A stretch of 52,749 bases of DNA, taken from Patiriisocius sp. Lineage in GTDB: Bacteria > Patescibacteriota > Minisyncoccia > Phycocordibacterales > UBA918. The notes under the pieces were generated by a model. The model had not been told where the DNA came from. It saw only the letters and a list, made by a program, of their open reading frames with translations, and searched no databases. The stretch is taken from assembly GCA_047624725.1 (NCBI GenBank), contig JBLHQB010000002.1, forward strand, positions 1 through 52,749, in the 5' to 3' direction. Both the position numbers and the translations under genes were made by a program. This document shows, in pieces, positions 763-27,810 of the stretch. Within the stretch, counting starts at the first letter, position 1. The number at the start of each line of letters is the position of its first letter.

Positions 763-873
763 AAGTTAGATTATAAAGCAACACAAAGACCGGCTCACGT
801 CGGTTTTTGTGTTGCTCAGTGGACGTATTTATGTTATTTTACGCATGTTATTAGGTAATTCTGAAATATAACA

Positions 874-1407
874 ATGTCAGAAGAAAATATGCCAGCAATC
901 GAAGTAAGTGAGCGTAACAGCTATGAACTTGCTTTCCACGTACTTCCAACGGTTGCTGAAGGGGAAGTGGCCGGTGTTTTTGAGGCAATCAAAACACTTA
1001 TTACTACAAACGGAGGTGAACTCGTTAGCGAGGAAGCTCCAGACCGATTCGATCTTGCATACGAGGTGATCAAACACATCGATGGAAAGAATCGGAAATT
1101 TACGAGTGCATACTTCGGTTGGGTACGGTTCATCAATGAACCTGAGTCTATCGAAGCTATTATGGAAGTAATGGATGCTGATTCAGCACTCTTGCGACAC
1201 CTACTTATTAAATTAAGTAAGGTTGAAGCAGCTGAACCATTCATGCTCCACGAAGCACTTGAATCTCACAAAATGGTTTCTACTGTTGATGAAGCTCCTA
1301 AGAAGGAAGCTCCAAAAACTGAAGCTGTAAAGGAAGAAGTTAAAGCTGAAGAAGCTCCTGTTGCTGAAGTGAAAGAAGAGACTTCAACAGAGGAGAAAAC
1401 AGCGTAA
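874..1407 (+). CDS. rpsF: 30S ribosomal protein S6 with Lys/Glu/Ala-rich C-terminal extension
   Basis: S6-like core (YELAFHVLP...RFDLAYEV...YFGWVRF) and the canonical rpsF-ssb-rpsR order. Confidence 0.9.
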   Translation: MSEENMPAIEVSERNSYELAFHVLPTVAEGEVAGVFEAIKTLITTNGGELVSEEAPDRFDLAYEVIKHIDGKNRKFTSAYFGWVRFINEPESIEAIMEVMDADSALLRHLLIKLSKVEAAEPFMLHEALESHKMVSTVDEAPKKEAPKTEAVKEEVKAEEAPVAEVKEETSTEEKTA

Positions 1408-1434
1408 TCTTTTATCTAGCGTAATCAAAATTCT

Positions 1435-1893
1435 ATGTTCCTGAACAAAGCAATGATCTACGGAAATCTCACACGAGATCCTGAAATGAAAGCACTTCCA
1501 AGCGGTATGAACGTTACGGCGTTCTCACTTGCGACTAATCGTCGATACAAGGACCGTGATGGTAATTACCAAGACGCAGCTGACTATCACAACATTGTGG
1601 TATTTGGTCGCCAGGCTGAAACAAGTTCGCAATACCTTAAGAAGGGGGCAAGCGCATATGTTGAAGGACGTATTCAAACACGTTCTTGGGAAAAAGATGG
1701 TGTGAAGCAATACCGAACAGAGATCGTTGCTGAACGGGTTCAATTTGGACCTAAAGGAGCAGGAGGAGAGGAAGGGGCACCAAGTGGAGCTCCTGCGGCA
1801 GCAGCAACGCCAAGTGCGGCAGCTGATGCTGTTGCGCCTGCTGCGCCTGATTATCCAGAGGAAGACATTAACCCAGAAGACATCCCATTTTAA
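1435..1893 (+). CDS. ssb: Single-stranded DNA-binding protein
   Basis: OB-fold SSB core (IYGNLTRDPEMK...YHNIVVFGRQAE...VEGRIQTRSWE), a Gly/Ala/Pro tail and an acidic tip ending ...PEDIPF. Confidence 0.93.
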   Translation: MFLNKAMIYGNLTRDPEMKALPSGMNVTAFSLATNRRYKDRDGNYQDAADYHNIVVFGRQAETSSQYLKKGASAYVEGRIQTRSWEKDGVKQYRTEIVAERVQFGPKGAGGEEGAPSGAPAAAATPSAAADAVAPAAPDYPEEDINPEDIPF

Positions 1894-1914
1894 AGAATTG
1901 AATAAAATCACTTA

Positions 1915-2001
1915 CCTTGCTTCGTTGTACTGCATAAAATTTTGTTCACCGTACCGACGTACGACTCACAATATTCTATTTGCACGCCTCGCAGGGCAAG
2001 C
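1915..2001 (+). repeat. Conserved ~90-nt intergenic motif, copy 1 (ssb-rpsR spacer)
   Basis: Shares TGCTTCGTTG (1918-1927), a central CCGTAC-loop-GTACG hairpin and CGCCTCGCA (1985-1993) with 14846-14938. Spacing between the conserved blocks is the same (67 vs 68 nt). Confidence 0.7.
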
Positions 2002-2109
2002 AATTTAATCCAATTCTCATTATCTGGAGATGGACAAAGGAAATAGAAGTTACAACTGAAATTTGAAATTGAAATTTATTAGCTAACTACACTACTATGA
2101 CAGAGGATG

Positions 2110-2145
2110 AATGAAGAAAGGAGCGAAAGCGACTATTCTGAATTT
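2110..2145 (+). repeat. Modular intergenic repeat family, L module only
   Basis: AATGAAGAAAGGAGCGAAAGCGACTATTCTGAATTT recurs at 8650, 13942 and, on the minus strand, at 25231-25268 and 27766-27810. Confidence 0.85.
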
Positions 2146-2209
2146 AGTTTTAAGTACAAATGTACTTGGAACACGTCTCTCGGTGGTAAGTTATAAAATA
2201 TAACCAATC

Positions 2210-2416
2210 ATGACTGAAGAAAAAGTAATGAAGCAATCTCCAAACCCAAACCATGTTGACTACAAAGACATCATGCGTTTGAAGGGGAACATCAACCCAC
2301 ACGCACGTATGTACAACCGACGACGTACTGGGTTGTCTGCAAAGGGACAGCGAAACTTCGCGCGAGCTATCAAGCGAGCACGATTTATGGCATTAGTGCC
2401 TTACGTATCTGAATAG
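2210..2416 (+). CDS. rpsR: 30S ribosomal protein S18
   Basis: VDYKD...LKGNINPHARMYNRRRTGLSAKGQRNFARAIKRARFMALVPY is a typical S18. Confidence 0.93.
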   Translation: MTEEKVMKQSPNPNHVDYKDIMRLKGNINPHARMYNRRRTGLSAKGQRNFARAIKRARFMALVPYVSE

Positions 2417-2434
2417 ATATCTATGTTTGAACAC

Positions 2435-2467
2435 AAAAAACCGACAAGTATGACTTGTCGGTTTTTT
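2435..2467 (+). terminator. Intrinsic terminator after rpsR
   Basis: AAAAAACCGACAAGT-ATG-ACTTGTCGGTTTTTT: a GC-containing stem followed by a T-run. Confidence 0.8.
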
Positions 2468-2780
2468 GTTTGCACGTATACTAAAAATGGAATAGAAAAT
2501 AGGGAAGATTAAAATGTTCTGCATTAAAAGATTGTTAAACAAAATTTTTCCAAGTAGGGAAGAATATATCCGTGATCTACCGAGAAGGGTCAAAGAAGCT
2601 AATCAGTTGAGAGGAAGGTACATAGCTGCCCACGTAGGCGGTGGAAGTAGAAGTGTTTTAATTTCTCAAGGGAAAATGCATGATACTGAAAAAATGAATT
2701 TGCTGTATGGCACACAGGCACCACGGCACAGATGGTAATAAAAGGGCTAGCATTTCTGCTAGCCCTTTTCTATTTTAGAC

Positions 2781-3356
2781 CTACGCCTTACTTACTCGTT
2801 CTGAGTACTGACCAGACTCGGTATTAATTGCGATCACGTCACCTTGGTTAATGAACATGGGTGCGAATACGACGTATCCGGTTTCCAGTGTTACTTCTTT
2901 TTTAGCGTCGCTGCTACTGTTGCCTTTAACTGCGTCCATTGCTTCAGTTACTTTTAGCTCCACCTTGATAGGGGTACTGACGCTCATGATGTCGTCGTTG
3001 AATACGATTGCTTCAACGATACTGTTTTCTACTACGTAGTTACCGAGTGCTCCTACGACTTCTTCGCCGAAGCTAAATCGGTCACCAGGGTTGGTAGGAG
3101 GGCAGAAGAAGTACTCTCCTTTGTTTGAGTACAGAAACTTTACATCTCTCTTTTCAATGTATGCCTCTTCAAGCACATCAGCTTGGTGGAATGTGCGGTC
3201 GACTACGCCACCAGTACGGAGGTTCTTCATCTTCACTGCGTTACTGGCTTTCTGTCGATCTTTCTTAGAGATGCTTGAGGTGAGTACAAGAAAGGGATCG
3301 TTGTCCATGATCACGGTTCGCTTTGGGAGTATTTGGTTGTATTCAACTTTAGCCAT
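2781..3356 (-). CDS. efp: Elongation factor P
   Basis: 191 aa with EF-P motifs (KMKNLRTGGVVDRTF...VKFLYSNKGEYFF...VELKVTEA...KEVTLETG). A bidirectional terminator lies at 2740-2769. Confidence 0.92.
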   Translation of the reverse strand: MAKVEYNQILPKRTVIMDNDPFLVLTSSISKKDRQKASNAVKMKNLRTGGVVDRTFHQADVLEEAYIEKRDVKFLYSNKGEYFFCPPTNPGDRFSFGEEVVGALGNYVVENSIVEAIVFNDDIMSVSTPIKVELKVTEAMDAVKGNSSSDAKKEVTLETGYVVFAPMFINQGDVIAINTESGQYSERVSKA

Positions 3357-3640
3357 ACTGAGTATATTACATTAGACCAAAAGTATAGTATAAACATAGT
3401 TTTGTGGCAATTCTTCTGGATTGCCGCGGCTGACACCTCGTAAGGACGGAAGGGTGGAGGTTTTGTCCTATTACAAGGTCGGTCCTTGTAATTATGTATT
3501 GAACTTGTAGGAGGTGGTGATTCTGTGCCAGGAGTCTCCTGGCTCACTGTTGTGTGAAGGGTAACCCTTACACAATAATGTATTGAACCTTATACTTTGG
3601 ATACTGCAACTACTTAGAATTCTGCTGAGTGTTAGTATGT

Positions 3641-4243
3641 ATGTACATGTTAGGTTTTACTACTACTGAAAATGCGAAGGAGTTGTCTGACGAGGAGATT
3701 TTACAGCGCTCGCAAAAGGAGCCTTGGATTTATGCGGTGTTGCTTGATCGGTATCAGGCGGCTTTTATGCGTAAGGCGCAGAGTATTGTGCGTAATGAGC
3801 TTGATGCTGAGGAGGTGGTGCAGGATGCTTTTACGAAGATTTATATGAATGCGGATAAATTTGAGCCGCAAGAGGGGGCGAAGTTTAGTTCGTGGGCGTA
3901 TCGCATTTTGATGAACACGGCGTTTACGAGGTATCAGAAGAAGGTGAAGGAGGGACAGCGGTTTGTGAATATTGATCCTGAGTATGAGCATATGGTTGGC
4001 GATGGTATTGCGCATGCGGCACTGCATGAACGTGAGGATGCGATTGAGCGAGTACTCGGGCGTATGCCAGGACACTTTGTGTATGTGTTGCGTTTGCATT
4101 ATCTTGAGCGTTGGCCGCATCAGGCTATTGCGCAGGAGACAGGTGAGACGGTAGGGACAGTGAAGGCGAGGATTCATCGTGCGAAGGCTGCGTTTCGTAA
4201 GGAGGTGGGGGATGATGAGACTGTTACGCTGCTCTCTGACTAA
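3641..4243 (+). CDS. ECF-type RNA polymerase sigma-70 family factor
   Basis: Region 2 (DAEEVVQDAFTKIYMNADKF...FSSWAYRILMNTAF) and region 4 HTH (HQAIAQETGETVGTVKARIHRAKAAFRKE). The start is ambiguous: GTG 3629, ATG 3641 or ATG 3647. ATG 3647 sits 8 nt after a TAGTAT -10-like box. Confidence 0.85.
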   Translation: MYMLGFTTTENAKELSDEEILQRSQKEPWIYAVLLDRYQAAFMRKAQSIVRNELDAEEVVQDAFTKIYMNADKFEPQEGAKFSSWAYRILMNTAFTRYQKKVKEGQRFVNIDPEYEHMVGDGIAHAALHEREDAIERVLGRMPGHFVYVLRLHYLERWPHQAIAQETGETVGTVKARIHRAKAAFRKEVGDDETVTLLSD

Positions 4244-4331
4244 TTTACCCGTAACCTTTTTAAGGTGTGCTAAGTATTAATAAGTGCTCTACAACGACGG
4301 AAGAGAAGTGTGGGTTGTACAGAATATATTT

Positions 4332-4658
4332 ATGAAAATGAAAACAAGCTATAACCAGATACAAAAGCGTATTATGCGACGAGTATACTATGCTTTTGGG
4401 GTGCGTCTTGCGACACATAGTATTACGTTGCATATGGTGGTGCTCGCTGTGGCTGCGTATGTACTGACACAGTTGGTGCACGTTGCTTCGGTGTTGGAGA
4501 ACGTGGCGAGTGTGCAGATGGGGGAGCTGGCCGGGTATTTGCAGCAGACTCTGACTCAGGCTGATGTTACGACATTGGCGGTGATTGGGATCGCGACCTT
4601 TACAGCACTCTCGCTTCCATTGCGACTGCCAAACTATCAGAAGATGCAGACGATTTAG
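4332..4658 (+). CDS. Small membrane protein downstream of ECF sigma (possible anti-sigma factor)
   Basis: 108 aa with two hydrophobic helices, immediately after the sigma gene. The function is inferred from position only. Confidence 0.45.
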   Translation: MKMKTSYNQIQKRIMRRVYYAFGVRLATHSITLHMVVLAVAAYVLTQLVHVASVLENVASVQMGELAGYLQQTLTQADVTTLAVIGIATFTALSLPLRLPNYQKMQTI

Positions 4659-4753
4659 TTGGACGAACATGTTCGCGAAAACATAGTAACAAGGACCGTG
4701 GGGACACGGTTCTTTTTGTGTGTGGTGACGCATGCTGGATTGCCGCGCTTGGT

Positions 4754-4813
4754 CTTCTTACAGAAGCTGTTCAGGTTGTCGCTATTGGCATAGCTGGCAA
4801 CCTCTTGCGAAAG
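4754..4813 (+). repeat. Modular intergenic repeat family, H module only
   Basis: CTTCTTACAGAAGCTGTTCAGGTTGTCGC...GCTGGCAACCTCTTGCGAAAG matches 14054-14112 and, with an enlarged loop, 23139-23264. The internal stem is AGGTTGTC/GGCAACCT. Confidence 0.8.
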
Positions 4814-4895
4814 TGTGCAAACACTTTCTCCGCAAAGACGGGTGGGGGGTAAAGAAAAAAACACCCATGGGGTGTTTTTTCTTTTGTCGTGATAC

Positions 4896-6008
4896 TTACT
4901 TTGTATCTTCTTTCATACTCTTTCGAATATTCTTCAACAACTCGTTGGTTAGCTTCTTGTCTGCTTTAAGAGTCTTTCTTGCTGCGTCGTATCCGCGGCC
5001 GAGTTTGATGATTGTTGACTCATCTCCGCCTGGTGGAGTGTAGCTGTATGATGCTCCTGCTTTGGCTACCATGCCGTACTTTTCTCCGAGTGCGAGGAGT
5101 TCTCCTTCTCGTGAGATTCCTTCTCCGTAGATGAGGTCGAATTCGGTTGTTCTAAACGGTGCGGCCACCTTGTTCTTTACTACCTTTACGCGGTGACGTC
5201 CTCCTACTACTTCGTCACCTTTCTTGATCTGCGCGATACGTCGGATGTCCATACGTACTGAAGTATAGAACTTAAGTGCCTTTCCTCCTGGGGTTGTTTC
5301 GGGGTTGCCGAACATTACACCGATCTGCATACGGATCTGGTTAATGAAGATTACGGACGTCTTTCCTTTGGCTACGATCGCAGTGAGCTTTCGTAGAGCT
5401 TGACTCATCAATCGTGCTTGCTTTCCTACATGGTGTGCTCCCATTTCTCCTTCAATTTCGTCTTTAGGAGTTAGCGCAGCAACGGAGTCGATTACGATTA
5501 CGTCAATTTTCCCGCTTCGTACAAGAGATTCTACGATCTCAAGAGCTTGTTCTCCTGTGTCAGGTTGCGAGATGAGGAGTTCATCGAGCTTTACACCGAT
5601 GTTTTTTGCGTACTCTGGGTCCATTGCATGCTCTGCATCGATAAAGGCACAGATCCCACCTTCTTTTTGTGCTTCGGCAATTGCGTGAAGCGATAGGGTA
5701 GTCTTTCCGGAAGATTCTGGTCCGTAGATCTCGATGATTCGTCCTCGGGGGATACCACCGATACCTAGAGCGTCATCTAGGCCGATTGATCCTGTTGAAA
5801 TCGCGTCGATGTCTACATGTTTGGTTTCATCAAGTGTCATGATGACCTCGTCACCAAACTTAGTCTTAAGACTTCGGAGAGTTTCTGAGATGTCTTTAGA
5901 ATGCTTCGTTTCTTCTTTCGTAGCTGCCTTGGGTGTAGCTGTAGTTTCTTCAACTTCCTCTTTCTCGACTTTCTTTGGTGCTGCTTTAGCTGCTTTTTTA
6001 ATTGCCAT
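4896..6008 (-). CDS. recA: Recombinase RecA with ~35-aa Lys/Glu-rich N-terminal extension
   Basis: Walker [11 protein letters not shown], plus [16 protein letters not shown] and [28 protein letters not shown]. Confidence 0.97.
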
Positions 6009-6077
6009 ATATTTTCTAGTTAGTGACTAAAGTCTATCATGAGGTGAACGATCGTACACCACGTAAGGTGTGGAGAT

Positions 6078-6455
6078 CTATTTTGCTTTCTCTGGGGCAT
6101 ATACAAACTCTTGTGTATATGAACTCGAGCTACCGTAGCGGTCGTGGGCCTGCAGTGTTGCTACAGTGTATCCGTTTTCAAGCACAAGCGTTTCGTTAAA
6201 GTACCCACTTTTGTCGGTGTAGATTTGTCGTCCGTTGAGGGTCATGCGCACGATGTTTTGTGCGTTGCCTTCAAGGATGACTTGCCGTGAGCTTTGCAAG
6301 GTCTCGGGCTGGTTGATGAAGGCCACTTCGGGACCGGCCAAGATAAATCGTGCTTGAAACAGTGCGTATCCTACAAACAAACTGGCTAGGGCGGCAAGAA
6401 AAAGGTAGTAGAGTATGCCGCGAAAGGTGATTGTTTGAGAGATAATAGGGGACAT
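6078..6455 (-). CDS. Hypothetical N-terminally membrane-anchored protein
   Basis: 125 aa with one N-terminal TM helix. It abuts the ftsK stop, suggesting co-transcription. Confidence 0.5.
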   Translation of the reverse strand: MSPIISQTITFRGILYYLFLAALASLFVGYALFQARFILAGPEVAFINQPETLQSSRQVILEGNAQNIVRMTLNGRQIYTDKSGYFNETLVLENGYTVATLQAHDRYGSSSSYTQEFVYAPEKAK

Positions 6456-6457
6456 GG

Positions 6458-8647
6458 CTATGTGTATTGTGAATCATTCTCCTCAGGTTCGTCACCAGCT
6501 CCCATATCAGAGATAAGAATCTCTCGAGCCTTTGATCCGTCCTGCGGGCCAATGACACCTTTATCTTCTAGGATGTCCATCAGGCGTGCTGCTCGGGAGT
6601 ATCCTACTCGTAGTTTTCGTTGGAGGTATGAGGTTGATGCTTTTCCTGCGTCGATTACTGCCTGACGAGCGTCATCGTAGAGGTCGTCAGTATCCTCATC
6701 ATCAGCCATAGAGCTAAAGAACGCGTCAGGGTTACTCCCTTCACTGTCGCCATCAAGGTCGATTGAATCGAGCTCTTGCGCGCTATCTTGGTTGGTTAGG
6801 TAATCTACGACGTTCTTAAGCTCTTCTTCTGAGATGTATGCGGATTGTAGCCGTACTGGCTTTGAGAGTTCTCCCGAGAGGAAGAGGGTATCTCCAGCTC
6901 CCAGTAGCTTCTCTGCACCTACCTGGTCAAGAATGGTTCGTGAGTCGATCTGTGAGGCCACCTGTAGCGCGATTCGACTTGGGATGTTGGCCTTGATTGT
7001 CCCGGTAATTACGTTTACTGATGGTCGCTGTGTTGCGAGGAGTAAGTGAATACCTACGGCTCGACTCATTTGAGCTAAGCGTACAATCGCTGCTTCAAGT
7101 TCTCGTGGGTAGGCCTGCATAAGGTCAGCAAGCTCATCCATAACAATAACGATGTAGGGAAGTGGTTCTGGGAGTTCGTCTTTCTGGTCTTCTGGCTCTC
7201 CGTCTTCAACGAACTTTGCTTTTGCTGGCTTGTAGACGTTTTCGTGGTATGAGCCTAAGTCCCGTACTTTTTTGGATTGCAGGATGTCGTACCGCCGCTC
7301 CATTTCCTTGATTGCCCATTTTAGGGACAGGATGGACTTCTTTGCGTCGGTAATAACAGGGGTCAGGAGGTGTGGGATTCCATCGTAGAGGGTTAATTCT
7401 ACTCGCTTTGGATCAACCATGATGAATCGTAGTTGCTCGGGTGAGTTCCTATATAGGAGTGAAGTGACAATTGCATGGATGGTTACTGACTTTCCAGACC
7501 CAGTAGTACCTGCGATAAGACCGTGAGGCATTTTTGCTACGTCAGCAAAGTGTGCCTTTCCTGTGATGTCTCGTCCGAGCGCTACCTGTAGTGGCTTTGG
7601 TGAATCGGTGTACTCGGGAGAGGTGAGGAGCGACGCAAGACCGATCATTGCTTTTTGTGTGTTTGGTACCTCGATACCTACTAATGACTTCCCGGGGATT
7701 GGTGCTTCGATTCGAAGAGGGGATGCGGCTAGCGCGAGTTCGAGGTTGTTTTGTAGTCCGACGATTTTTGAGATTCGCACGCCTTCAGCTGGTTTTAGTG
7801 CGTATCGGGTTACTGAGGGTCCGATAGATACTTCATCCATCTCTACATCGATCTTGAAGTTCTTGAGTGTTCGTTTGATGATGTTAGCGTTAGCCTTCAC
7901 ATCACCTACTTTGGCCTTCCCTTTGTCTTTTTGTAGGAGTGATAGGGGAGGAGGTGCATAGGTCCCGGTGAAGTTTGAAACGGTGAAATCGGCATCTTTG
8001 GTGAGTCCGAGTCGTTCGGTCACGGTCTTTGATTTCTTCACTGGTTTTTCCTCAGCTTCTTCTGGCTCTTCTTCAATTTCCTCGGGTCCTGCATCTTCGG
8101 GGATCTCGAGTTGTGCGATGTCTGCGTCGTTCTCAAGAACCTCTTTCTCCTTTTTCTTAAGGAAGCCTGGCATCTGGAGACCTGTATTGAAGGTAAGGAA
8201 GATACCTACTAATAGTATTGCACCAATGACGAATCCTGCTGCGACACCTCCCATGAGGTAATACAGTGGTGCTTCAATCAGCCATCCCGCGATACCCCCT
8301 GCTCCTTCTTTGGAGAGCGTCAGGAATCCGAGTGTCGTAAAGAACAGGAGTGCAATACCGATGATCTTAGAGGTGCTCACTTCTTCGTCTTCTTTAGGAT
8401 TGAGTAGTGCATATACATAGAACCCACACACAAAAGGTGCGAGATACGCGCCGCCTCCAAAGAGGTAGTTAAGTGCTGCGCGAGCCCATTCTCCAACCAT
8501 GCCAGCGAAGTCGAATAATGAGAGGGTAAAGAATATCCCTAATACTACAAATCCAACCGCGCCAATTGCTTGCTTAGCTTGCGGAGAAAGGTCGTCGAAG
8601 AAGGGACGTCGCTCTGCCTTTTTAGGTTTTTTCTTGCTCTTAGCCAT
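6458..8647 (-). CDS. ftsK: DNA translocase FtsK/SpoIIIE
   Basis: N-terminal TM helices, an acidic linker, Walker A GTTGSGKS, Walker B VIVMDELADL and a C-terminal winged-helix gamma domain (YLQRKLRVGYSRAARLMD). I prefer the ATG at 8647 over the TTG at 8650. Confidence 0.95.
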   Translation of the reverse strand: MAKSKKKPKKAERRPFFDDLSPQAKQAIGAVGFVVLGIFFTLSLFDFAGMVGEWARAALNYLFGGGAYLAPFVCGFYVYALLNPKEDEEVSTSKIIGIALLFFTTLGFLTLSKEGAGGIAGWLIEAPLYYLMGGVAAGFVIGAILLVGIFLTFNTGLQMPGFLKKKEKEVLENDADIAQLEIPEDAGPEEIEEEPEEAEEKPVKKSKTVTERLGLTKDADFTVSNFTGTYAPPPLSLLQKDKGKAKVGDVKANANIIKRTLKNFKIDVEMDEVSIGPSVTRYALKPAEGVRISKIVGLQNNLELALAASPLRIEAPIPGKSLVGIEVPNTQKAMIGLASLLTSPEYTDSPKPLQVALGRDITGKAHFADVAKMPHGLIAGTTGSGKSVTIHAIVTSLLYRNSPEQLRFIMVDPKRVELTLYDGIPHLLTPVITDAKKSILSLKWAIKEMERRYDILQSKKVRDLGSYHENVYKPAKAKFVEDGEPEDQKDELPEPLPYIVIVMDELADLMQAYPRELEAAIVRLAQMSRAVGIHLLLATQRPSVNVITGTIKANIPSRIALQVASQIDSRTILDQVGAEKLLGAGDTLFLSGELSKPVRLQSAYISEEELKNVVDYLTNQDSAQELDSIDLDGDSEGSNPDAFFSSMADDEDTDDLYDDARQAVIDAGKASTSYLQRKLRVGYSRAARLMDILEDKGVIGPQDGSKAREILISDMGAGDEPEENDSQYT

Positions 8648-8649
8648 CA

Positions 8650-8788
8650 AATGAAGAAAGGAACGGCAGTGACTATTCTGAATTTAATTCCCAATTTCAC
8701 ACGCTGCATACAGGATTTGTGTCGTTCTGCAATTAAGAGGTCCTGCACAGAGGCATAACGCTATCTTAATATAGGTGAAATTGCTGGA
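8650..8788 (+). repeat. Modular intergenic repeat family: L module + stem arms around a ~75-nt insert
   Basis: AATGAAGAAAGGAACGGCAGTGACTATTCTGAATTT, then CCCAATTTCAC ... GTGAAATTGCTGGAA. It begins 2 nt from the ftsK start codon. Confidence 0.8.
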
Positions 8789-8976
8789 AAACAGGGTCAC
8801 TCCATTCACAATATTATGAATAAATAATACCTACATTCTACCATAATGACCTTAGGGACATCCCTTGAATAATCGAGGTTTATAGGCGTATTTGGGACAT
8901 TGCAAGTCTTATAGAAAGGTGTATAGTACATAGAGATTGTCCTAAAGAAACATTAGAAGCTATCAAGGACACCACT

Positions 8977-9696
8977 ATGAATACAAAGGACACAACTATA
9001 AACGACAACAACTTCAAGAAGCTTGTCCATAATGAAGAGTATTACCGCAACATATTCAAAAAGACAGAGAAAGTAATCTCTGTTGTCTTTTACATACTCA
9101 ATAACATTGACGCTAATAAAAAGTCAGAGACACACATCAGCAACCTTGCAGGTAAGAGCCATTTTGCCCATGAGAATGCATTGCGGTCTTTAGAGGTAAA
9201 AATGTCTAACTCAAAAGAGGTGCTTGAGCAGTTTGCACAGGCACTGATAGCGCTTGATAGTACGCTTCGGGTTACCTCGGCGAGCGGGGTGATTACCAAT
9301 GATGTGCTGTATGTGGTTACCAATGAGATTGATACGGTCCTGCGAGGATTGAGTAAGTACATAGCTCCAGACGTAGGGATAGAATCATCATTTATGATGT
9401 CTGCCCCAGGCCCAAGTGCAGCAGCTTCATCATCGGCAACTCCTGCTCGACAAGTTGTCCGGAAGACACCAGTGAAGAGTGCTGAAGGTCAGAATGTGCC
9501 GACTACGACAATGGATCGACGTACTCGTATTCAGACAATTCTTGAAGCAAAGGGGGAGGCAACAATTAAAGACATTTCAGAGATTATAACGGACTGTAGT
9601 GAAAAGACACTACAACGTGAGTTAAACGCCATGATTGAAGACATGATCGTTAAGAGACAGGGGGAACGACGGTGGTCAAAATATTCTATTGCTTAG
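8977..9696 (+). CDS. Hypothetical protein with C-terminal winged-helix (DeoR-like) HTH
   Basis: The C-terminus TRIQTILEAKGEATIKDISEIITDCSEKTLQRELNAMIEDMIVKRQG is wHTH-like. The N-terminal domain is unassigned. Confidence 0.6.
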   Translation: MNTKDTTINDNNFKKLVHNEEYYRNIFKKTEKVISVVFYILNNIDANKKSETHISNLAGKSHFAHENALRSLEVKMSNSKEVLEQFAQALIALDSTLRVTSASGVITNDVLYVVTNEIDTVLRGLSKYIAPDVGIESSFMMSAPGPSAAASSSATPARQVVRKTPVKSAEGQNVPTTTMDRRTRIQTILEAKGEATIKDISEIITDCSEKTLQRELNAMIEDMIVKRQGERRWSKYSIA

Positions 9697-13907: not shown

Positions 13908-13941
13908 AAAATTAAAAAGCCTACAAATGTGGGCTTTTTTT

Positions 13942-14143
13942 AAATGAAGAAAGGAGCGAAAGTGACTATTCTGAATTTGCCCTAATTTTTAAGAAGACTT
14001 CAGTCGACTATAAAAATGGAAATACCCTTGGGGTGCTGTCCCAATTTCGTCCTCTTCTTACAGAAGCCGTGTAGGTTGTCGCTCTTGAGATCTGGCAACC
14101 TCTTGCGAAACTTACGCTCCTCACCTAGGCGAAATTGCTGGAC
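13942..14143 (+). repeat. Modular intergenic repeat family: fullest copy (L + M + stem arm + H + stem arm/CTGGAC)
   Basis: Collinear with 27676-27810 (minus strand) except for the H insert. H matches 4754-4813. The stem arms are CAATTTCG/CGAAATTG. Confidence 0.85.
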
Positions 14144-14347
14144 CCTTGTCTTTTTTATGAAAACTGGTACAGTTGCGGGCAACAGGCTCATGACAGCTGG
14201 TTGTGTATCGGAATGGGTATACAGTAACGAAACAATTGTTTCACCGGTCGAGGTCAATCTCAATTTTTTGATATTGGAAAGGTCGTAGCCTAGTAGAAGT
14301 TTTTCTTCTCTGGGCCTGTTTTATTAAGACCGTAATCCATATTTTAA

Positions 14348-14833: not shown

Positions 14834-14845
14834 TCGTGACAGCAC

Positions 14846-14938
14846 CTAGTCTGCTTCGTTGAGCTGCGATAATGTATCGCTTACCGTACGTTGGTACGGC
14901 TCGCAATACATTTCTTGCTCGCCTCGCATACCAGGCAC
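14846..14938 (+). repeat. Conserved ~90-nt intergenic motif, copy 2 (rplJ-rplL spacer)
   Basis: TGCTTCGTTG (14852-14861), hairpin CCGTAC-GTTG-GTACGG (14884-14899) and CGCCTCGCA (14920-14928). See copy 1 at 1915-2001. Confidence 0.7.
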
Positions 14939-14982
14939 TCTCAAAATTATGAAGAACATACTATTAAATTTGAAAAATTATC

Positions 14983-15456
14983 ATGACTGAGGAAACTAAA
15001 GTAGAGGCGGAAGCAGTAGTAGAGGAAGTAGCAGTAGAAGAAGTTGTTGCTGAGGCAGCAGCATCAGACGTAGACGAAACTGTTGAAGTACCAGAAGCTT
15101 TCAAGGCGCTTGTAGAGCAAGTTGAAACTATGACTGTACTTGAACTACACGAACTCGTTAAGGTTCTAGAAAAGCGATTCGGTGTATCAGCTTCAGCAGT
15201 TGCTGTAGCAGGTCCTGCTGGAGGAGCTGATGCTGGAGAAGAGCAGTCTGAATTCACTGTAATGCTAACTGAAGCAGGAGCTTCAAAGATCGCAGTGATC
15301 AAGGCGGTTAAGGAAGCATGTGGTCTTGGACTTAAGGAAGCTAAGGAGCTCGTAGATGGAGCACCAGCTGAAGTTAAGGCAGGTCTTAAGAAGGAAGACG
15401 CAGAAGAACTAAAAGCGAAGTTGGAAGAGGCTGGCGCAGGTGTTGAACTTAAATAG
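14983..15456 (+). CDS. rplL: 50S ribosomal protein L7/L12 with ~35-aa acidic N-terminal extension
   Basis: The C-terminal domain [56 protein letters not shown] is diagnostic. Confidence 0.95.
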
Positions 15457-15550
15457 TCCAACTACTAAATACAGTAAAGGCACGAGCTCTAGGGTTCGTG
15501 CCTTTACTGTATCTGGTGACTAATGTATTTAAGTTCAACACCTGCGCCAG
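15431..15550. repeat. 25-bp perfect inverted repeat (rplL 3' end and its inverted copy) enclosing the rplL terminator hairpin
   Basis: CTGGCGCAGGTGTTGAACTTAAATA (15431-15455, includes the stop codon) versus TATTTAAGTTCAACACCTGCGCCAG (15526-15550). The terminator stem-loop lies between them at 15471-15510. Confidence 0.9.
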
Positions 15551-18645: not shown

Positions 18646-19348
18646 ATCGCCTACGTGTTTAGGAATGACTGCTAAACGAGTCGGGAAGAGCAAGAAGATT
18701 CACTTGAATTTTCAACCTCATCTAATGATTCTTTTAGGTCACAGTCATTCTAAAGAAACTCGCGATCGTTGACATCGTGAATAACTACTGAGGTCGATCC
18801 ATCTAGGATTGGACGGCCTCAGCTCAAAGTCCTACCATGGTCGACGCCTGGTAGGCAGGTTCGCATTGATTCCGTTACTCGTTATACAATGCGAACAAAA
18901 AGGTAGTTTGTTGGGTTAAGACAACAACGTTAGCTTAGCCGCTAACAGGGTCTTTTCGTCCCCAACAAACAATCATAGTTATGAGAAGTGCTGTATGGAA
19001 TTGCAGTAACCTTGTAACGCACATACCGAGTTTCAAAAAGTTAGTATTTATTCTTTTTGAAACAAATTTTCCTCAGAGCGTAGATGCTCTGAGGGATACA
19101 CTCAAATTAAATTGTACAGTGGTGTACAGCATTCCCTATGGGAATGAAGGGTGTATGGTGGATGCCTAGGCTTTACAGAGCGATGAAAGACGTGAAATGG
19201 CTGCGATAAGTTTCGACGAGGTGCCAATTAACCTTCGACTCGGAAATTTCTGAATGGGGAAACCCTACTACTCTTAGTAGTAACCTGCGTATGCAGGAGC
19301 GCACCCAGGGAAGTGAAACATCTCAGTACCTGGAGGAATAGAAAGCAA

Positions 19349-19434
19349 TATATGGAACTTTCGTTCTGGATTACACTATTTTGAATTTATTCAAAATGCC
19401 ATTGTATTCAGGACGAAGGTTCTTGCGATTCCCT
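19349..19434 (+). other. ~85-nt hairpin expansion segment in 23S domain I
   Basis: Inserted between GAAAGCAA and GCGATTCCCTTAGTAGCGGCGAGCG, relative to E. coli AAATCAACCGAGATTCC. It folds as one long imperfect helix: GGAACTTTCGTTCTGGATTAC.../...GTATTCAGGACGAAGGTTC. Confidence 0.6.
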
Positions 19435-19435
19435 T

Positions 19436-19470
<35 letters not shown>

Positions 19471-19694
19471 TACGTATTTATATGTGTGGGGTTGTAGGGC
19501 GGAGTTTGCATTTAGTTGCAGAGAGTTACAAATTGTATAGATAGCAAAACAAGCTGGGAAGCTTGACCCTAGTGGGTAATAGTCCCGTATGCGAAATTTA
19601 TACGACTCTCTTGATTCCGTTCCTGAGTAGTCCGAGACATGAATAGCTCGGATGAATCTGCGAGCACTAACTCGTAAGGCTAAATATTTGTAAA

Positions 19695-19740
<46 letters not shown>

Positions 19741-20301
19741 GGAGAGGGGAGTGAAATAGATCTGAAACCATACATCTACAAGGAGTTGGAGACCTGCGGG
19801 TCGACAGCGTGCCTATTGAAGAATGAGCCGGCGAGTGTACCTTTATCCTTTGTCTAAGTGGTAACCCCACGGAGGCGCAGTGAAAGCGAGCGTGAATAGC
19901 GCGACTATAGGGTAGGGGTACGACCCGAAACGGGATGAGCTTGCCATGAGCAGGGTGAAGCGGAGGTAAAACTCCGTGGAGGCCCGAACCGGTTGACCGT
20001 ACAAAATCATCGGATGACTTGTGGTAAGGAGTGAAAAGCTTATCGAATTCCGTAATAGCTGGTTCTCTCCGAAACAGCTTTTGGGTTGGCGTCGCGTGGT
20101 CCCTCTGGGGGTAGAGCACTGGAAAGAAAGAACAGGGTGAAAACTCGTCTTTCTTATCAAACTCCGAATACCAGCAGGTTATAGCGCGGCAGTTAGACTA
20201 TGGGGGAGAAGCTCCATTGGTCGAAAGGGAAACAGCCCAGATCGTCAGTTAAGGTCCCTAAATATATACTCAGTGCCAAATAAGGAGGTGAGGATTCACC
20301 A

Positions 20302-20336
<35 letters not shown>

Positions 20337-21188
20337 TAAAGATAGCGTAACAGCTCACTGGTCGAGAGTCCTTGCGCCGCAAATGAACGGGGCTCAAGTA
20401 TATTACCGAAACTACGGATTCGCATCTTCTTCGGAAGGTGTGAGTGGTAGGAGAGCATTCCATTCTGCAATGAAGCCAAGGCGAGAGCCGCGGTGGAGCG
20501 TATGGAAGAGAGAATGCCGGCACAAGTAACCGCAAGACGGGTGAGAACCCCGTCCGCCGAAATACCAAGGTTTCCTGGGCTATGTTGATCAGCCCAGGGT
20601 TAGTCGGTCCTAAGCAGATCCCGAACGGGGGATGCGATGGATAGCAGGTTAATATTCCTGCACACAGATTTCGTTCCGATGGAGGGACGGAGTGTTGTAC
20701 TTATAGCATCTTATTGGATTGGTGCTGGAGTGCTGAGGAGGTTAGATAGGCAAATCCGTCTAACAATACTCCGAGGTAAGTCTGAATGCAAAGCTACGGC
20801 TGAGCAAATATAGGGAGCACACTTCCGAGAAAAACTTCTAAGGTAGTACGCGATCTGTTCCGTACCCCAAACCGACACAGGTGGTAGAGTCGAGAAGACT
20901 AAGGCGAACGAGTGAGAGGTCCTTAAGGAACTCGGCAAAAAAGCGATCGTAACTTCGGGATAAGATCTGCCCACATACCTTCGGGTATCAGTGGGCCGCA
21001 GCGAAAGATTTCCTGGCGACTGTTTACCAAAAACACAGCTCCCTGCGAACACGTAAGTGGATGTATAGGGGGTGACGCCTGACCAATGCCGGAAGGTTAA
21101 ATACGGGGGGTGAAATGAACTTCGGTTTGTTTTGCTGGACTGTATAAGCCCCGGTCAATGTCAGCGATAACTATAATCGTTCTAAGGT

Positions 21189-21417
21189 AGAGCGCGTTTC
21201 CACTTCGGTGGAAGTACGCTCTACGGACTGGAACGATTGTAGATGTAAACAGCCCGAGCCATAGTTACCTTGCGTCCTAGTAATAGGCGCATAGTCCAAA
21301 CTAAACCAACAAGAGACCAAATGTTTAGCATCCGATCCTGAGCAATCAGAAGGATGAAGATAGAGTCCTGTTGTGCACGTATCAGTAAAGGCTGATACAT
21401 AAAAGAAGGAAAAATAG
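21189..21417 (+). mobile_element. ~229-nt ORF-less insertion at the E. coli U1931-equivalent site (probable compact group I intron)
   Basis: Splits CTAAGGT | AGCGTATTTCCTTGTCGGGTAAGTTCCGAC. The 5' exon ends in T and the insert ends in G. The border is ambiguous by 1-2 nt because of an AG repeat. Confidence 0.5.
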
Positions 21418-22077
21418 AGCGTATTTCCTTGTCGGGTAAGTTCCGACGTGCACGAATGGCGTAACGACCGGGAAACTGTCTCAAGGACCTGCTCGGTGAA
21501 AATACAATCCCGGTAAAGATGCCGGGTACCTGCAGTTAGACGAAAAGACCCCAGGAGCTTTACTGTAGCTTCGTATTGGGGCTGTTGAATTTATGTGTAG
21601 CATAGTGGGGAGACTTTGAAGCGGGCTTTCGGGTACCGTGGAGTCACCAGTGAAATACCCATCTTAAATTTGGCAGTCTCTAACCTGGTAGGACAAACCT
21701 ATTAGGGACAGTGCGTGGTAGGCAGTTTTAGTGGGGCGCTACCCTCCTAAAGAGTAACGGAGGGGTCTCAAGGTCAACTAGCCGCGAATGGAAACCGTGG
21801 CGATAGTGCAATGGCATAAGTTGGCTTGACTGTAAGGCGTAGATGCCGAGCAGATACGAAAGTAGAGCATAGTGAACCGATGGTCCGCTTTAGATGCGGC
21901 CGGAGATTACCCGATAAAAGTTACCCTGGGGATAACAGGCTAGTATTGCCCAAGCGTCCATAGCGACGGCAATGTTCGGCACCTCGATGTCGGCTCGACT
22001 TATCCTGGGGCTGGAGCAGGTCCCAAGGGTTTGGCTGTTCGCCAATTAAAAAGTCACGCGAGCTGGGTTTAGACCGT

Positions 22078-22379
22078 TTAGTTTCTGATATTATCGGAAT
22101 TTAGACCGTCTAAGTCCACTCATAACGATACATAATCGAGTTTTTCAGTCTATGAAATAACGAAGGAACCAACCAAGATCACGGCGGTGCATGCTAGCAA
22201 TAGTGTGTAACAAACTAACTTATATCGGTAGAACCCTACATCATTCACTAAAATGATCGGGCAATACCGAGGGAAGTTGCAAAACGCCCGTAGAGACTAG
22301 ACGTTAGACTTCCAGCGAATCAAATCTCTCTGGAAGATGATATAGTCCGATCCTCCAAGTAATTGGAGATAACACAATG
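22078..22379 (+). mobile_element. ~302-nt ORF-less insertion at the E. coli U2593-equivalent site (probable group I intron)
   Basis: Splits GCTGGGTTTAGACCGT | CGTGAGACAGGTTGG. The 5' exon ends in T and the insert ends in G. No ORF of 60 aa or more lies inside. Confidence 0.55.
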
Positions 22380-22521
22380 CGTGAGACAGGTTGGTCTCCT
22401 ATCTACTGCAGGCGTCGATACTTGACGAGATTTGTCCCTAGTACGAGAGGACCGGGATGAACTAACCTCTGGTCTACCTGCTGTCACGCCAGTGGCACCG
22501 CAGGGTAGCTATGTTGGGAAT

Positions 22522-22554
<33 letters not shown>

Positions 22555-22930
22555 AACTTGAAGATTAGGTATCATTAAGTCTCCTGAGAGATTATCAGGT
22601 TGATAGGCACTAGGTGGAAGCGCAGCAATGTGTGCAGCCGAGGTGTACTAATAAGACGTATTTCCCATGGGGAATGTTGTACAGCTACTGAACAATTTAA
22701 TTTTGTGTAGCGGTATGTGTAAATAGTCAGTTATGGATCATCTTTGATTGTCCATAACAAAAATGAGTGTAGTTATTGACGAAATCAATTGAATATCGCG
22801 AAATGGTATTCAAACAGCATATAATCGTGTTGTTTGATCCACTTCGGGACGAGATACTTTTGTATCTTTCTAAGGTAACCCTTAGCGTCCCGACCATTTC
22901 GCGATATTCAAGACCTTTATTGAAGGTTTA

Positions 22931-23042
22931 ATGTTGGTGCTTTGGCGGCGAGGGTCCACCCGTTCTCATTCCGAACACGGAAGTTAAGCTCACCAGCACC
23001 GATGGTACTACGAAAGTGGGAGAGTAGGTCGGCGCCAACATT
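22931..23042 (+). rRNA. rrf: 5S rRNA
   Basis: Helix I ATGTTGGTGC / GCGCCAACAT, plus CCGAACACGGAAGTTAAGC and GAGAGTAGG. It lies ~250 nt after the 23S. Confidence 0.9.
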
Positions 23043-23312
23043 AAGTTTTCAATACAAAAAATACCCAGACTTCGGTCTGGGTATTTTTTGTATTGACGCT
23101 ACTAAAGTAGCGACGACCGTGGAGGAGAGTAGATCCTCCTTACAGGAGCTGTGCAGGTTGTCACGACTTCTTCGATACTTCAGAAATCGCTGGCACTATC
23201 GCTTTACTCCGCATAAAGAAAATATAATCACCACGTTCTTTATTTTCCTAAACCTCTTGCGAAGTGACGTTAGGTCACTTCTCACGCCAACATTAAGTTT
23301 TCAATACAAAAA
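23033..23312 (+). repeat. 28-bp perfect direct repeat (5S 3' end + flank) bracketing a ~250-bp block that contains an H/stem-type repeat module
   Basis: CGCCAACATTAAGTTTTCAATACAAAAA occurs at 23033-23060 and again at 23285-23312. Each copy is followed by a different terminator hairpin. The block between contains CTTACAGGAGCTGTGCAGGTTGTC...GAAATCGCTGGCAC...AACCTCTTGCGAAG. Confidence 0.9.
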
Positions 23313-25179: not shown

Positions 25180-25192
25180 AACTCAGTCATTG

Positions 25193-25268
25193 GTCCAGCG
25201 ATTTTCCCAAGGGGAGAAAAATCGGGACATAAATTCAAAATAGTCGCATACGCTCCTTTTTTATTTAA
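25193..25268 (-). repeat. Modular intergenic repeat family: degenerate L + short stem copy
   Basis: The reverse complement reads AAAAAGGAGCGTATGCGACTATTTTGAATTTATGTCCCGATTTTTCTCCCCTTGGGAAAATCGCTGGACC. Confidence 0.8.
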
Positions 25269-25384
25269 GATTATTCCCAAGACTGATGCAGGATTTGCTC
25301 TGTAATTAAACTCAAAAAGACCTAGAAAAATTATGTTTCTAGGCCTTTTACGTACCTGTGTATTTACCGTATACTTAAGGTTCT

Positions 25385-27660: not shown

Positions 27661-27675
27661 AGTGATGTATCTTTG

Positions 27676-27810
27676 GTCCAGCAATTTTCCCTAGGACGGG
27701 AAAAATTGTGCCAGCATCCCAGGGGTATTTCCATTTTTATAATCGACTGTGGTCTCATTAACAATTAGGGCAAATTCAATATAGTCATTACATTCCTTAT
27801 TTCATTCATT
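27676..27810 (-). repeat. Modular intergenic repeat family: L + M + stem copy (no H)
   Basis: The reverse complement aligns along its whole length with 13942-14053 plus 14121-14143. The stem is CAATTTTTCCC/GGGAAAATTG. The element ends 15 nt upstream of the GT4 start codon. Confidence 0.85.

Follow-up and report, generated by a model that had tools for sequence, protein, structure and literature searches.

A candidate family of mobile structured repeats in the intergenic DNA of Patescibacteria

The stretch analysed here, referred to as the window, comprises 52,749 nt of a patescibacterial genome (Patiriisocius sp., assembly GCA_047624725.1, contig JBLHQB010000002.1), and its intergenic regions carry a repeat whose fullest copy lies upstream of rplJ, at 13941-14143. 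An earlier note, made from the sequence alone, had described a single composite element of ca. 200 nt built from modules L, M, H and a stem followed by CTGGAC. We find instead a nest of at least three independent families: L and the stem-CTGGAC module are the two halves of one discrete unit of ca. 78 nt that folds into two hairpins, and M and H are separate structured families rather than parts of a 200-nt composite. The unit is structured, specific to Patescibacteria and restricted to intergenic DNA, its insertion is polymorphic between related genomes, and it nests with the other modules. We lean towards regarding it as belonging to a new family, or set of families, of mobile structured repeats that spans the phylum, is non-autonomous and keeps its fold on one strand only; as far as Rfam and the searchable literature show, it is undescribed.

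Structure and distribution of the two-hairpin unit

Pattern counts in the window exceeded those of shuffled sequences, with five matches to the L pattern AAGGANNGN{4,5}GACTATNNTGAATTT (0.00 expected), three to the H pattern (0.00 expected) and five to AAWYGCTGGA (0.47 expected). Since a repeat finder independently recovered the L, H and M similarities as well, including an 86% match between 13963-14047 (M) and the opposite strand of 27703-27787, the repeats can be taken as real. A census with a covariance model of the unit returned copies both in the window and in related contigs of the Candidate Phyla Radiation (CPR). With filters off, eight unit copies were detected in the window, two of which had not been listed before. 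These copies, together with the associated modules, are as follows.

13941-13978, plus strand: hairpin 1 of the fullest copy (formerly L), UAAAUGAAGA-AAGGAGCGAAAGUGACUAU-UCUGAAUUU; covariance-model match, pairing backed by covariation
13979-14037, plus strand: M module between hairpins 1 and 2, with AAGAAG..CGACUAU core, basal stem AAUUUUU/AAAAAUG and GCCC..GGGGUG
14038-14049, plus strand: 5' arm of hairpin 2 of the fullest copy, GUCC outer stem and CAAUUUCG inner stem
14050-14129, plus strand: H module in the loop of hairpin 2, with P1 CUUCU-UAC-AGAAG, P2 AGGUUGUC../..GGCAACCU, then CUCUUGCGAA .. CUCAC
14130-14143, plus strand: 3' arm of hairpin 2 of the fullest copy, CGAAAUUG, CU bulge and GGAC
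25192-25267, minus strand: complete canonical unit of 76 nt, the best of the window (76.6 bits, E 7e-14)
27675-27808, minus strand: unit with M between its hairpins and no H; hairpin 1 at 27772-27808, hairpin 2 at 27675-27711; ends 15 nt before the ATG at 27659
35517-35609, plus strand: unit with disrupted hairpin 1 (58.6 bits) and intact hairpin 2 (35570-35609); ends 33 nt before the ATG at 35642
35480-35554, minus strand: degenerate unit, newly found (49.5 bits, E 3e-8), head-to-head with 35517-35609, the palindromic hairpin-1 region being common to both
8648-8790, plus strand: unit with a 77-nt insert (8699-8775) in the loop of hairpin 2, identified by sequence and covariance model
2108-2172, plus strand: unit with a short degenerate hairpin 2 (53.7 bits), located after a relic of the rpsR start, ATGACAGAGGA (2095-2105)
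4751-4832, plus strand: free-standing H module between two terminators of a convergent gene pair
23133-23284, plus strand: H module ca. 90 nt downstream of the 5S rRNA, with a degenerate reversed hairpin 1 (23200-23251) inside its P2 loop
23033-23060, plus strand: first copy of a 28-nt direct repeat (5S 3' end and downstream), 100% identical to the second
23285-23312, plus strand: second copy of this direct repeat, directly after the H module, the two copies bracketing the H insertion

All copies reported earlier were present within a few bases of the positions then given, and the five pairs of stem arms quoted had been read correctly. The descriptions of 27676-27810 (minus strand) as collinear but devoid of H, of 8650-8788 as L plus stem arms around a different insert and of 4754-4813 as H alone agree with the list above. 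The element at 23139-23264 is indeed an H module but does not stand alone, as a reversed hairpin 1 is nested inside it. Two copies were more complete than had been thought: 25193-25268 had been taken for the tail of L plus a short stem and is the canonical unit, and 2110-2145, given as L alone, is followed by a hairpin 2. As for the placement of the modules, only H lies in the loop of hairpin 2, M being located between the two hairpins.

The unit family extends beyond this one genome to many lineages of Patescibacteria. A scan with the L pattern, covering one genome per species, yielded 83 loci, 70 of which occur in Patescibacteria-like contigs; in these 70 the covariance model detected 92 copies, vs none in 13 non-CPR and 5 viral loci that carry the bare L pattern and served as negative control. 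The five viral matches were accordingly set aside as chance. Some model-positive contigs are labelled Azotimanducaceae or Acidimicrobiales; their GC content (42-45%) is like that of the others and they are probably mis-binned. The nearest public contigs are metagenome-assembled genomes of Patescibacteria, of which L070 (UBA7435; L-numbers designate the contigs or loci compared with the window) is syntenic with 826-7537 of the window at 82-90% nucleotide identity. An exact-protein look-up of ribosomal protein L10 yielded no strain but this one, which is present in JGI sample 3300055292 and in two Logan assemblies. A second set consisted of 80 metagenome contigs encoding an L10 66-92% identical to that of the window (hereafter L10-selected; 627 kb in total) and contained 31 copies, i.e. 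about one per 20 kb vs one per 6.6 kb in the window.

Among the matches in Patescibacteria, L is nearly always directly followed by a second hairpin ending in CUGGAC or CUGGAAC, and the compact unit measures 76-84 nt in other genomes. Hairpin 1 has the form UAAAUGAA-NN-AAGGAG[short stem-loop]CGACUAU-N'N'-UGAAUUU, which can be written in full as U-AAAU-GA-A-NN-A-AG-GA-GY-(GNRA or GNA loop)-RC-GA-CU-A-U-N'N'-U-GA-AUUU. Tandem G·A/A·G motifs occur twice in it and one A is bulged; its non-canonical core, 5'-AAGGAG / CGACUAU-3', carries a 2-bp stem closed by a GNRA or GNA loop. The same core is also found on many unrelated, always complementary, basal stems. Hairpin 2 follows the scheme GUYC-stem-loop-stem-CU-GGRAC: (N)GUYC is followed by an A/U-rich inner stem usually starting with SAAUUU or YGAUUU, and by a distal stem of free sequence; beyond the terminal loop, which is often UUCCUAG and ranges from ca. 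8 to ca. 140 nt, the strand returns through the inner stem to the CU bulge and GGRAC(N). The invariant CTGGA reported after all stems is thus real as a sequence but is not a separate tail, CTGGAC corresponding to a CU bulge plus the 3' arm of the outer stem, GGAC, which pairs with the GUCC just 5' of the stem. Boundaries of the unit are sharp and coincide with helix ends; outside, no conservation extends beyond position -1 except for a weak R(T/A) preference at -2/-1 on the 5' side, and the flanks of the aligned copies show no conserved promoter-like or terminator-like sequence on either side.

Selection on the fold, as previously proposed from the copies of the window, is supported by strong strand-specific covariation in 47 independent compact copies from other genomes. 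In this alignment 97.1% of cells pair, vs 80.0 ± 0.7% when partners are shuffled and at most 46% when they are slid by 1-3 columns, with changes on both sides at 17 of the 27 pairs. Copies were admitted as compact only if part of hairpin 2 paired, so that the hairpin-2 counts of this alignment lean towards structure. The cleanest test of covariation is provided by four pairs of hairpin 1 left free by the search pattern. Each of these shows two to five standard pair types (three to five counting rare ones), with at most one unpaired cell per pair over 46-47 sequences: GC 18, AU 13, CG 10, UA 4 and GU 1 at pair 9-32; AU 31, UA 9 and CG 6 at pair 10-31; GC 31 and AU 13 at pair 16-24; and CG 27 and UA 17 at pair 17-23. 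Model-based alignments of unfiltered matches gave the same picture. G·U outnumbers A·C in three alignments (45:8, 93:21 and 41:22), which indicates that the fold belongs to one strand. Compensatory changes beyond those expected from relatedness, as looked for by a generic test for structured RNA, were found in the unit and in helices P1 and P2 of H. Folded as a single sequence, the 209-nt composite gives z = -1.8 for the plus and -0.5 for the minus strand, values that are uninformative by themselves.

Several other readings of the unit were tried and set aside. Coding potential is contradicted by in-frame stops in common variants (ATG AAC AAA GGA ACG TAG) and by the compensatory variation. No convincing -35/-10 of a sigma-70 promoter was seen by eye within the unit on either strand, and a scan placed none on it. 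Hairpin 1 does not qualify as a k-turn or box C/D motif, its tandem G·A being flanked by Watson-Crick pairs with no 3-nt bulge, and the loops of hairpin 2 and of H P1 do not fit, by eye, the T-loop or anticodon-loop rules of a tRNA-like structure. As regards a putative pseudoknot between AAGGAG and a UUCCU loop of hairpin 2, AAGGA is fixed by the search pattern itself, and the loops are variable. A leader peptide 'ATGTCAGAAGATAAATGA' upstream of some units was also rejected, the ATG having decayed in the orthologues L120, L119, L117 and L074; this mini open reading frame (ORF) copies the start of whichever gene follows downstream. Finally, Rfam 15 gave no match over any window copy at the gathering threshold, only chance-level matches for three copies up to E=10, and no description of such repeats in Patescibacteria was found in the searchable open literature, in agreement with the earlier failure to assign them to a known RNA or repeat family.

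Associated modules, insertion sites and genomic context

The H module starts with a 5-bp hairpin (P1) with a conserved loop region CUUACAG, followed by the joiner GCUGUUCAGGUU and by a second helix (P2) closing around a variable insert; its 3' part runs from CUCUUGCGAA through a third hairpin to CUCAC. Of the 27 distinct matches to a relaxed motif, all but two or three were recognisable H copies. P1 covaries; at the base of P2, CAGGUU..AACCU and CACCUU..AAGGU replace each other as whole blocks in 7 of the 19 aligned copies. H occurs in the loop of hairpin 2 in forward orientation in the window and reversed in L070 and L100; in L097 and at L070:719-799 it is reversed within the apical loop of hairpin 1, and three genomes (the window, L034 and L102) have it downstream of the 5S rRNA. 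M repeats the core hairpin (AAGAAG-stem-loop-CGACUAU) on another basal stem, together with a GCCC..GGGGUG clamp; the copy in the window shares 92-95% identity with those of L049, L097 and L155, and L028 carries M in reverse.

Two further modules were noticed. Module T (..CUUCGUU..[CU]ACCGUAC-loop-GUACGRCUC..GCCUCGCA..), for which no Rfam match was found, occupies the ssb-rpsR and rplJ-rplL spacers of the window (ca. 1900-2010 and ca. 14840-14960) and matches a regular expression 18 times in 16 loci; it is located just after rplJ in L049, L101, L107, L112 and L120, and elsewhere directly follows a unit. Module P (AUGCAGRCGCUUAGC..UUCGACCCCUUCCUAGGGGAGAAAUAGGCUGCAGCGGGCUGCC; L004, L013, L023, L031 and L059, e.g. 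L013:6153-6220) is an alternative long 3' hairpin that follows hairpin 1 in some genomes, and units have repeatedly been inserted at one of its internal positions (GGGA^GAAAUAG).

Orthologous spacers of related genomes show presence/absence polymorphism at several sites. The rpsF-ssb site holds a unit in L070 vs 27 nt in the window, and the ssb-rpsR site, before rpsR, is empty in L070 and carries the 2108-2172 unit in the window; the free-standing H at 4751-4832 is likewise absent from the orthologous L070 spacer. Upstream of rplJ the site is empty in L092 (L10 92% identical), in which the upstream terminator runs straight into the conserved promoter-leader, contains a unit plus M in L097/L098 (91%), and contains a unit plus M plus H in the window. 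Only L097, among the four closest sequences, carries a unit in the rplJ-rplL spacer, with a reversed H. Three states are found upstream of ftsK: the unit with its 77-nt insert in the window, a unit with a reversed H in L100 and a decayed remnant in L092, and the presence of a unit or remnant at this orthologous site shows that the insertion at 8648 is old.

The most precise junction is provided by L059, in which two copies of module P occur in tandem: the first is intact (..AAGGGA GAATATAG..) and the second is split by exactly TGAATGAAG...GCTGGAT, so that this filled/empty pair corresponds to the exact insertion of a unit with no duplicated bases. A solo hairpin 1 interrupts an IS3-type transposase pseudogene in L006 and, overall, units and modules nest in both directions and in both orientations. 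Hairpin 1 at 13941 differs at only 2 of 38 positions from its paralogue at 2108 vs at least 8 from its positional orthologue in L097, which indicates that copies have been homogenised or replaced within the genome, either by concerted evolution or by re-insertion.

Insertion does not involve terminal inverted repeats, as the ends of the unit (UAAAUGAA... and ...CUGGAC) are not inverted repeats of each other. Host flanks are duplicated in some cases, over ca. 12 nt of the rpsR start, ca. 20 nt of the rplL start and a perfect 28 nt of the 5S 3' end for an H copy. These duplications may stem from the import of flanking gene ends by recombination, a possibility suggested by the altered rplJ end in L097, or from variable staggered insertion. 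Each copy of the 28-nt repeat (23033-23060 and 23285-23312) is followed by its own terminator hairpin. The H modules downstream of 5S in L034 (3915-4010) and L102 (17491-17590) also end in CUCACGCCAAC, like the 5S 3' end, and are followed by a 5S-like trailer, so that this arrangement is old, though the 28-mers of the window are identical; such endings may reflect common signals for 3' processing or a long target duplication of early date.

The window has a GC content of ca. 45% and a GC skew that is positive along the whole 52.7 kb, corresponding to a single replichore. It contains the 23S (with an extra insertion) and 5S rRNA genes, 16S being not linked to them, a tRNA-Ile, an S-adenosylmethionine (SAM) riboswitch and housekeeping protein genes (rpsF, ssb, rpsR, efp, recA, ftsK, rplJ and rplL), and it is among such genes that copies are dispersed, here and in relatives. 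Gene context was assigned with a crude ORF rule, by which 74 of 75 copies lie outside ORFs and the next downstream gene is on the same strand in 41 of 65 cases and on the other strand in 24 (p ~0.05, normal approximation by hand). Between co-directional genes, 29 of 45 copies are sense and 16 antisense by hand count, and antisense copies score as well as sense ones. The 25192-25267 unit is of the latter type, being antisense in the spacer of two plus-strand genes, upstream of a terminator-like hairpin (ca. 25310-25345). The 5' end of the unit often runs into the stop codon of the gene before it, the UAA or UGA being supplied by the unit, or else is 0-6 nt away from a divergent gene's start codon, as observed for the 8648-8790 unit, which abuts the start codon (8646-8648, minus strand) of an FtsK-like gene. 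Many copies in other genomes are located 12-50 nt upstream of a start codon.

The fullest copy is located directly after the terminator of the upstream gene and before a conserved rplJ leader with a TATAGT-like box (14 relatives compared). This conservation suggests that the copy lies upstream of the rplJ promoter, in which case it would not belong to the rplJ 5' untranslated region (UTR). The distances of 15, 33, 188 and 204 nt to the next start codon given earlier for four copies are about right, but in the 204-nt case, that of rplJ, the gene's own conserved promoter-leader lies in between. The leader itself (ca. 190 nt, ca. 14160-14347: GGGCAACAGGCUCAUGACAGCUGG..GGUCGAGGUCC..GGUCGUAGCC..GUAAUCCAUAUU) is found in every L10-selected relative inspected and is probably an L10 autoregulatory leader, though it has no match to Rfam L10_leader. 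Two independent Logan assemblies of the same strain (L089:1-12 and L091:1-11) break 11-12 nt upstream of rplJ.

The rplJ-rplL spacer is the site at which retention is most apparent, with 16 of the 31 matches of the L10-selected contigs, all in sense orientation. Nine copies were aligned, five from L10-selected contigs and four from pattern-selected loci. Eight of them keep an upstream relic of the rplL start (...AGAAGA), which in the ninth, L108, has decayed to CTGACGAA; the nine therefore probably derive from one old insertion. Double changes were found at 9 of 27 pairs, with 97.9% of cells paired, to which conversion from paralogues could contribute. Such a contribution does not apply to the end of rplJ, where compensation is locus-specific and thus cannot come from paralogues. 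In L126, L127, L171, L144 and L134, the 5' strand of hairpin 1 is formed by the last rplJ codons (..AAA AAG CAG GCU UAA GGAG..) and the non-coding 3' strand tracks the coding one (AAAGCAG/CUGCUUU, AAAGGCG/CGCCUUU and AAAGGC/GCCUUU); L097 has the same arrangement with the tandem G·A kept (AAAC-GA-G/..GA-GUUU). This compensation is the strongest sign that the hairpin matters in place, where it may act, most simply, as RNA within the rplJL transcript.

Candidate explanations and comparison with known systems

Under the mobile-repeat reading towards which we lean, units and modules insert whole into intergenic DNA, extreme gene ends, pseudogenes and one another, in either orientation, and over short evolutionary distances copies are gained, become nested, are made uniform inside a genome and are lost. 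The folded strand would be recognised by a trans-acting factor, which may be a mobilising enzyme, an RNA-binding protein or both. Sense copies inside operons (rplJ-rplL and rRNA spacers) might have been co-opted as RNA structures with likely roles in processing or stability, as with REP or BOX elements, and many other copies would be neutral passengers that decay. The empty and filled orthologous sites, the exact junction and the nesting in both orientations make a mobile hairpin of REP or MITE (miniature inverted-repeat transposable element) type the best-fitting of the options that had been put forward before.

Several observations weigh against this reading. No mobilising gene was found in the window or in the related contigs, in which the RAYT-like genes carry other repeats, and no autonomous parent element was seen among the contigs examined. 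Junctions are inconsistent (0 nt in L059; ca. 12, ca. 20 and 28 nt elsewhere) and no single known mechanism gives all of them, and the context counts depend on the crude ORF rule. The unit is shared by many species-level genomes and M keeps 92-95% identity between distant ones, which exceeds what is typical of selfish repeats and could mean a host function. Compensation at the 3' end of rplJ argues for host-level selection and not only for selfish spread, and the RNA-level part of the reading is conjectural.

One alternative, to which we give limited but real weight, is that the unit is a host cis-acting RNA module, such as a binding site for a conserved patescibacterial RNA-binding or ribosomal protein, an RNase processing site or a 'punctuation' signal, its multiplicity reflecting function and its apparent mobility ordinary duplication and loss. 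The occurrence of the core on many unrelated but complementary basal stems is what is seen with protein-binding RNA motifs; sense copies occur in rRNA operon spacers, the 16 rplJ-rplL copies of L10-selected contigs and the four pattern-selected ones that were read out are all sense, and the compensatory changes involving rplJ coding sequence as well as the conservation across the phylum fit in equally well. Such a module is more difficult to reconcile with the 16 of 45 copies between co-directional genes that are antisense and score as well as sense ones, with the position of the fullest copy between a terminator and a promoter, with flanks devoid of conserved promoter or terminator, with the rapid gain, loss and decay (L092), and with units nested in each other and in a transposase pseudogene. 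That the unit would instead be a riboswitch or ribosomal-protein leader in the 5' UTR of the downstream gene, another of the earlier options, is hardly credible. Four of the five stem-bearing copies of the window do point at a nearby start codon and many elsewhere lie 12-50 nt upstream of one, but the downstream genes are functionally unrelated and form no coherent set, 24 of 65 copies face a gene end, large insertions are tolerated, and the rplJ copy is located upstream of the conserved promoter-leader at a site that is empty in L092. Small-RNA genes transcribed independently and acting in trans appear very unlikely as well: the units are discrete, with conserved single-stranded and non-canonical positions and a fold that stays intact whatever the orientation of flanking genes, but they show no promoter-like or terminator-like sequence at their boundaries, abut start or stop codons at 0-7 nt and tolerate large insertions between and within hairpins.

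Mobilisation by a RAYT or IS200/IS605-type enzyme, the unit being a REP/BIME or a derived PATE or MITE whose hairpins serve as single-stranded DNA substrates of a Y1 HUH transposase, would account for strand-specific hairpins, for the lack of terminal inverted repeats and for the one filled/empty pair without target duplication. RAYT-like genes do exist in the clade: tblastn detected them in 11 of the 80 related contigs (L143, L145 at 8367-9038, L131, L154, L156, L155, L104, L150, L107, L109 and L147), where they are syntenic, upstream of rplJ, and encode products with HUH and Y motifs. The queries (IS200 TnpA and E. coli RayT) served for detection only, and it is the Pfam confirmation that counts (Y1_Tnp PF01797, E 8e-8). 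Each of these genes has on its flanks several copies of a short G+C-rich palindrome that differs from genome to genome, which suggests that classical REPtrons exist in the clade with a different REP in each genome, but no unit or H copy was found within 300 nt of any of the 11 genes, and the link to RAYT suggested earlier was thus not borne out. In the window, tblastn detected no Y1 gene and Pfam no recombinase domain in the ten otherwise unassigned ORFs. Furthermore, the left and right hairpins of the unit are unrelated, unlike the two ends of IS200/IS605, which have a hairpin type in common; its foot shows neither a GTAG or CGTC tag nor a conserved target tetranucleotide, and neither tnpA nor tnpB is associated with it. 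Copies of the window are oriented 4 plus to 4 minus on a single replichore which, small as this sample is, argues against the lagging-strand bias of an IS200/IS605-like mechanism. This explanation is therefore improbable, in spite of the resemblance to IS200/IS605 derivatives in having sub-terminal hairpins.

We consider it still less probable that the unit is a SINE-like retro-mobile RNA, processed from longer transcripts, reverse-transcribed and re-inserted by a resident reverse transcriptase. Sharp boundaries at helix ends, both orientations without terminal repeats, flanking duplications varying from 0 to 28 nt, truncated copies (the disrupted hairpin 1 of 35517; hairpin 1 alone in L006) and the similar behaviour of several unrelated structured modules all speak for it. 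A-rich tails are lacking, no reverse transcriptase turned up, though none was searched for, the duplications could have another origin such as recombination importing gene ends (as in the changed rplJ end of L097), and to our knowledge there is no bacterial precedent. A broader version, which we regard as speculative and give no more credit than a host RNA module, would see the unit, M, H, T and P as a Patescibacteria-wide repertoire of mobile 'plug-in' RNA domains, several of which share a tandem-G·A core read by a conserved protein; copying would pass through an intermediate, either RNA or single-stranded, and rely on a machinery unrelated to RAYT/IS200, and the domains would form a bacterial counterpart of SINEs, recruited by the host for operon processing (rplJ-rplL and rRNA spacers).

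The family behaves most like REP/BIME, pneumococcal BOX, Rickettsia RPE and Neisseria Correia elements, and it lacks defining features of REP/RAYT systems, IS200/IS605 derivatives, classical MITEs and integron attC sites. BOX elements of Streptococcus pneumoniae (boxA-boxB-boxC) and RUP are modular, intergenic and non-autonomous with a predicted stable RNA fold. As in these, separable sub-elements are found in varying combinations; there is no sequence relation, however, and BOX has a fixed A-B-C order vs independent nesting families and a phylum-wide spread here. Rickettsia RPE and Neisseria Correia elements are small structured repeats of reduced or host-dependent genomes that insert at gene ends and are kept at orthologous sites, but RPE are often found within genes, in frame with them, and Correia elements are bounded by terminal inverted repeats and a TA duplication, neither of which is seen here. 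REP/BIME of Proteobacteria with their RAYT (including REPINs) resemble the unit in being abundant, extragenic (here eight copies in 52.7 kb), hairpin-forming on one strand, present in both orientations and variable between close relatives, sometimes as head-to-head pairs (here 35480-35609), with some copies in operon spacers, where REPs affect mRNA stability (PMC2817692, PMC3116915). A REP is nonetheless a G+C-rich palindrome of 20-40 nt, tagged with GTAG or CGTC and confined to one species group, vs 78 nt, two unlike hairpins and a non-canonical core for the unit, which is conserved across many species and families; and in the related contigs examined the repeats flanking a RAYT gene are not the unit. 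Terminal inverted repeats and a short fixed target duplication, which define classical MITEs, are both lacking.

Hairpin 2 recalls integron attC sites in its outer box, extra-helical CU bulge, inner stem and variable loop, and in being recognised by shape rather than by sequence. An attC reading was rejected on the core sites, the R''/R' consensus (RYYYAAC / GTTRRRY) fitting neither strand of the hairpin-2 base (GUYC, and GGRAC after CU); moreover, unit copies are dispersed without cassette arrays or an integrase nearby, and hairpin 1 has no counterpart. TIGR arrays, which also occur in CPR genomes, consist of 36-nt repeats arranged in tandem beside a gene for Tas, a Nop-domain protein (PMC12045711). 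The UGA..UGA strands of hairpin 1, which form tandem G·A pairs, recall box C/D, but the units described here are scattered singly, carry no spacers and lack a 3-nt k-turn bulge, and a TIGR-Tas reading was discarded since none of its defining features is shared.

Since CPR genomes are very small and tightly packed, an interspersed repeat of such abundance is unexpected in them, and the unit, whose sequence and fold are conserved over many uncultured lineages, provides a defined structured-nucleic-acid motif for a group with almost no described non-coding elements. Units mark insertion polymorphisms useful for strain tracking and can mislead gene callers at gene ends. They may also break short-read assemblies, but the L089 and L091 breaks lie in the rplJ leader and not in the repeat. 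A dedicated partner, either a non-RAYT mobilising enzyme or a protein binding the tandem-G·A core as RNA, would, if real, represent new biology for the group.

Other features of the window

The extra insertion of the 23S rRNA gene (19135-22673) measures 302 nt (22078-22379) and is absent from the 23S of L026 and L034. The Rfam group I intron model matches 22132-22369 with 46.9 bits (threshold 50) and E 6e-11; in L034 a group I intron occupies another 23S position. The 28-nt palindrome ATCTATGTATCATATATGATACATAGAT is perfect and occurs three times (36225-36252, 36672-36699 and 37939-37966); its copies bracket a gene on the minus strand with a weak TrpR-like helix-turn-helix (36272-36673), one with a DM13 domain and one of the DUF805 family, and look like candidate operator sites for a local repressor. 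At 15431-15550, an inverted repeat of 60+60 nt without spacer, 82% complementary, starts in the last rplL codons. Finally, the ORF at 37-762 contains a long (PT/PE)n low-complexity tract made of 6-nt ACCAAC/ACCAGA units, copies of which are 12 or 18 nt apart (75-281).

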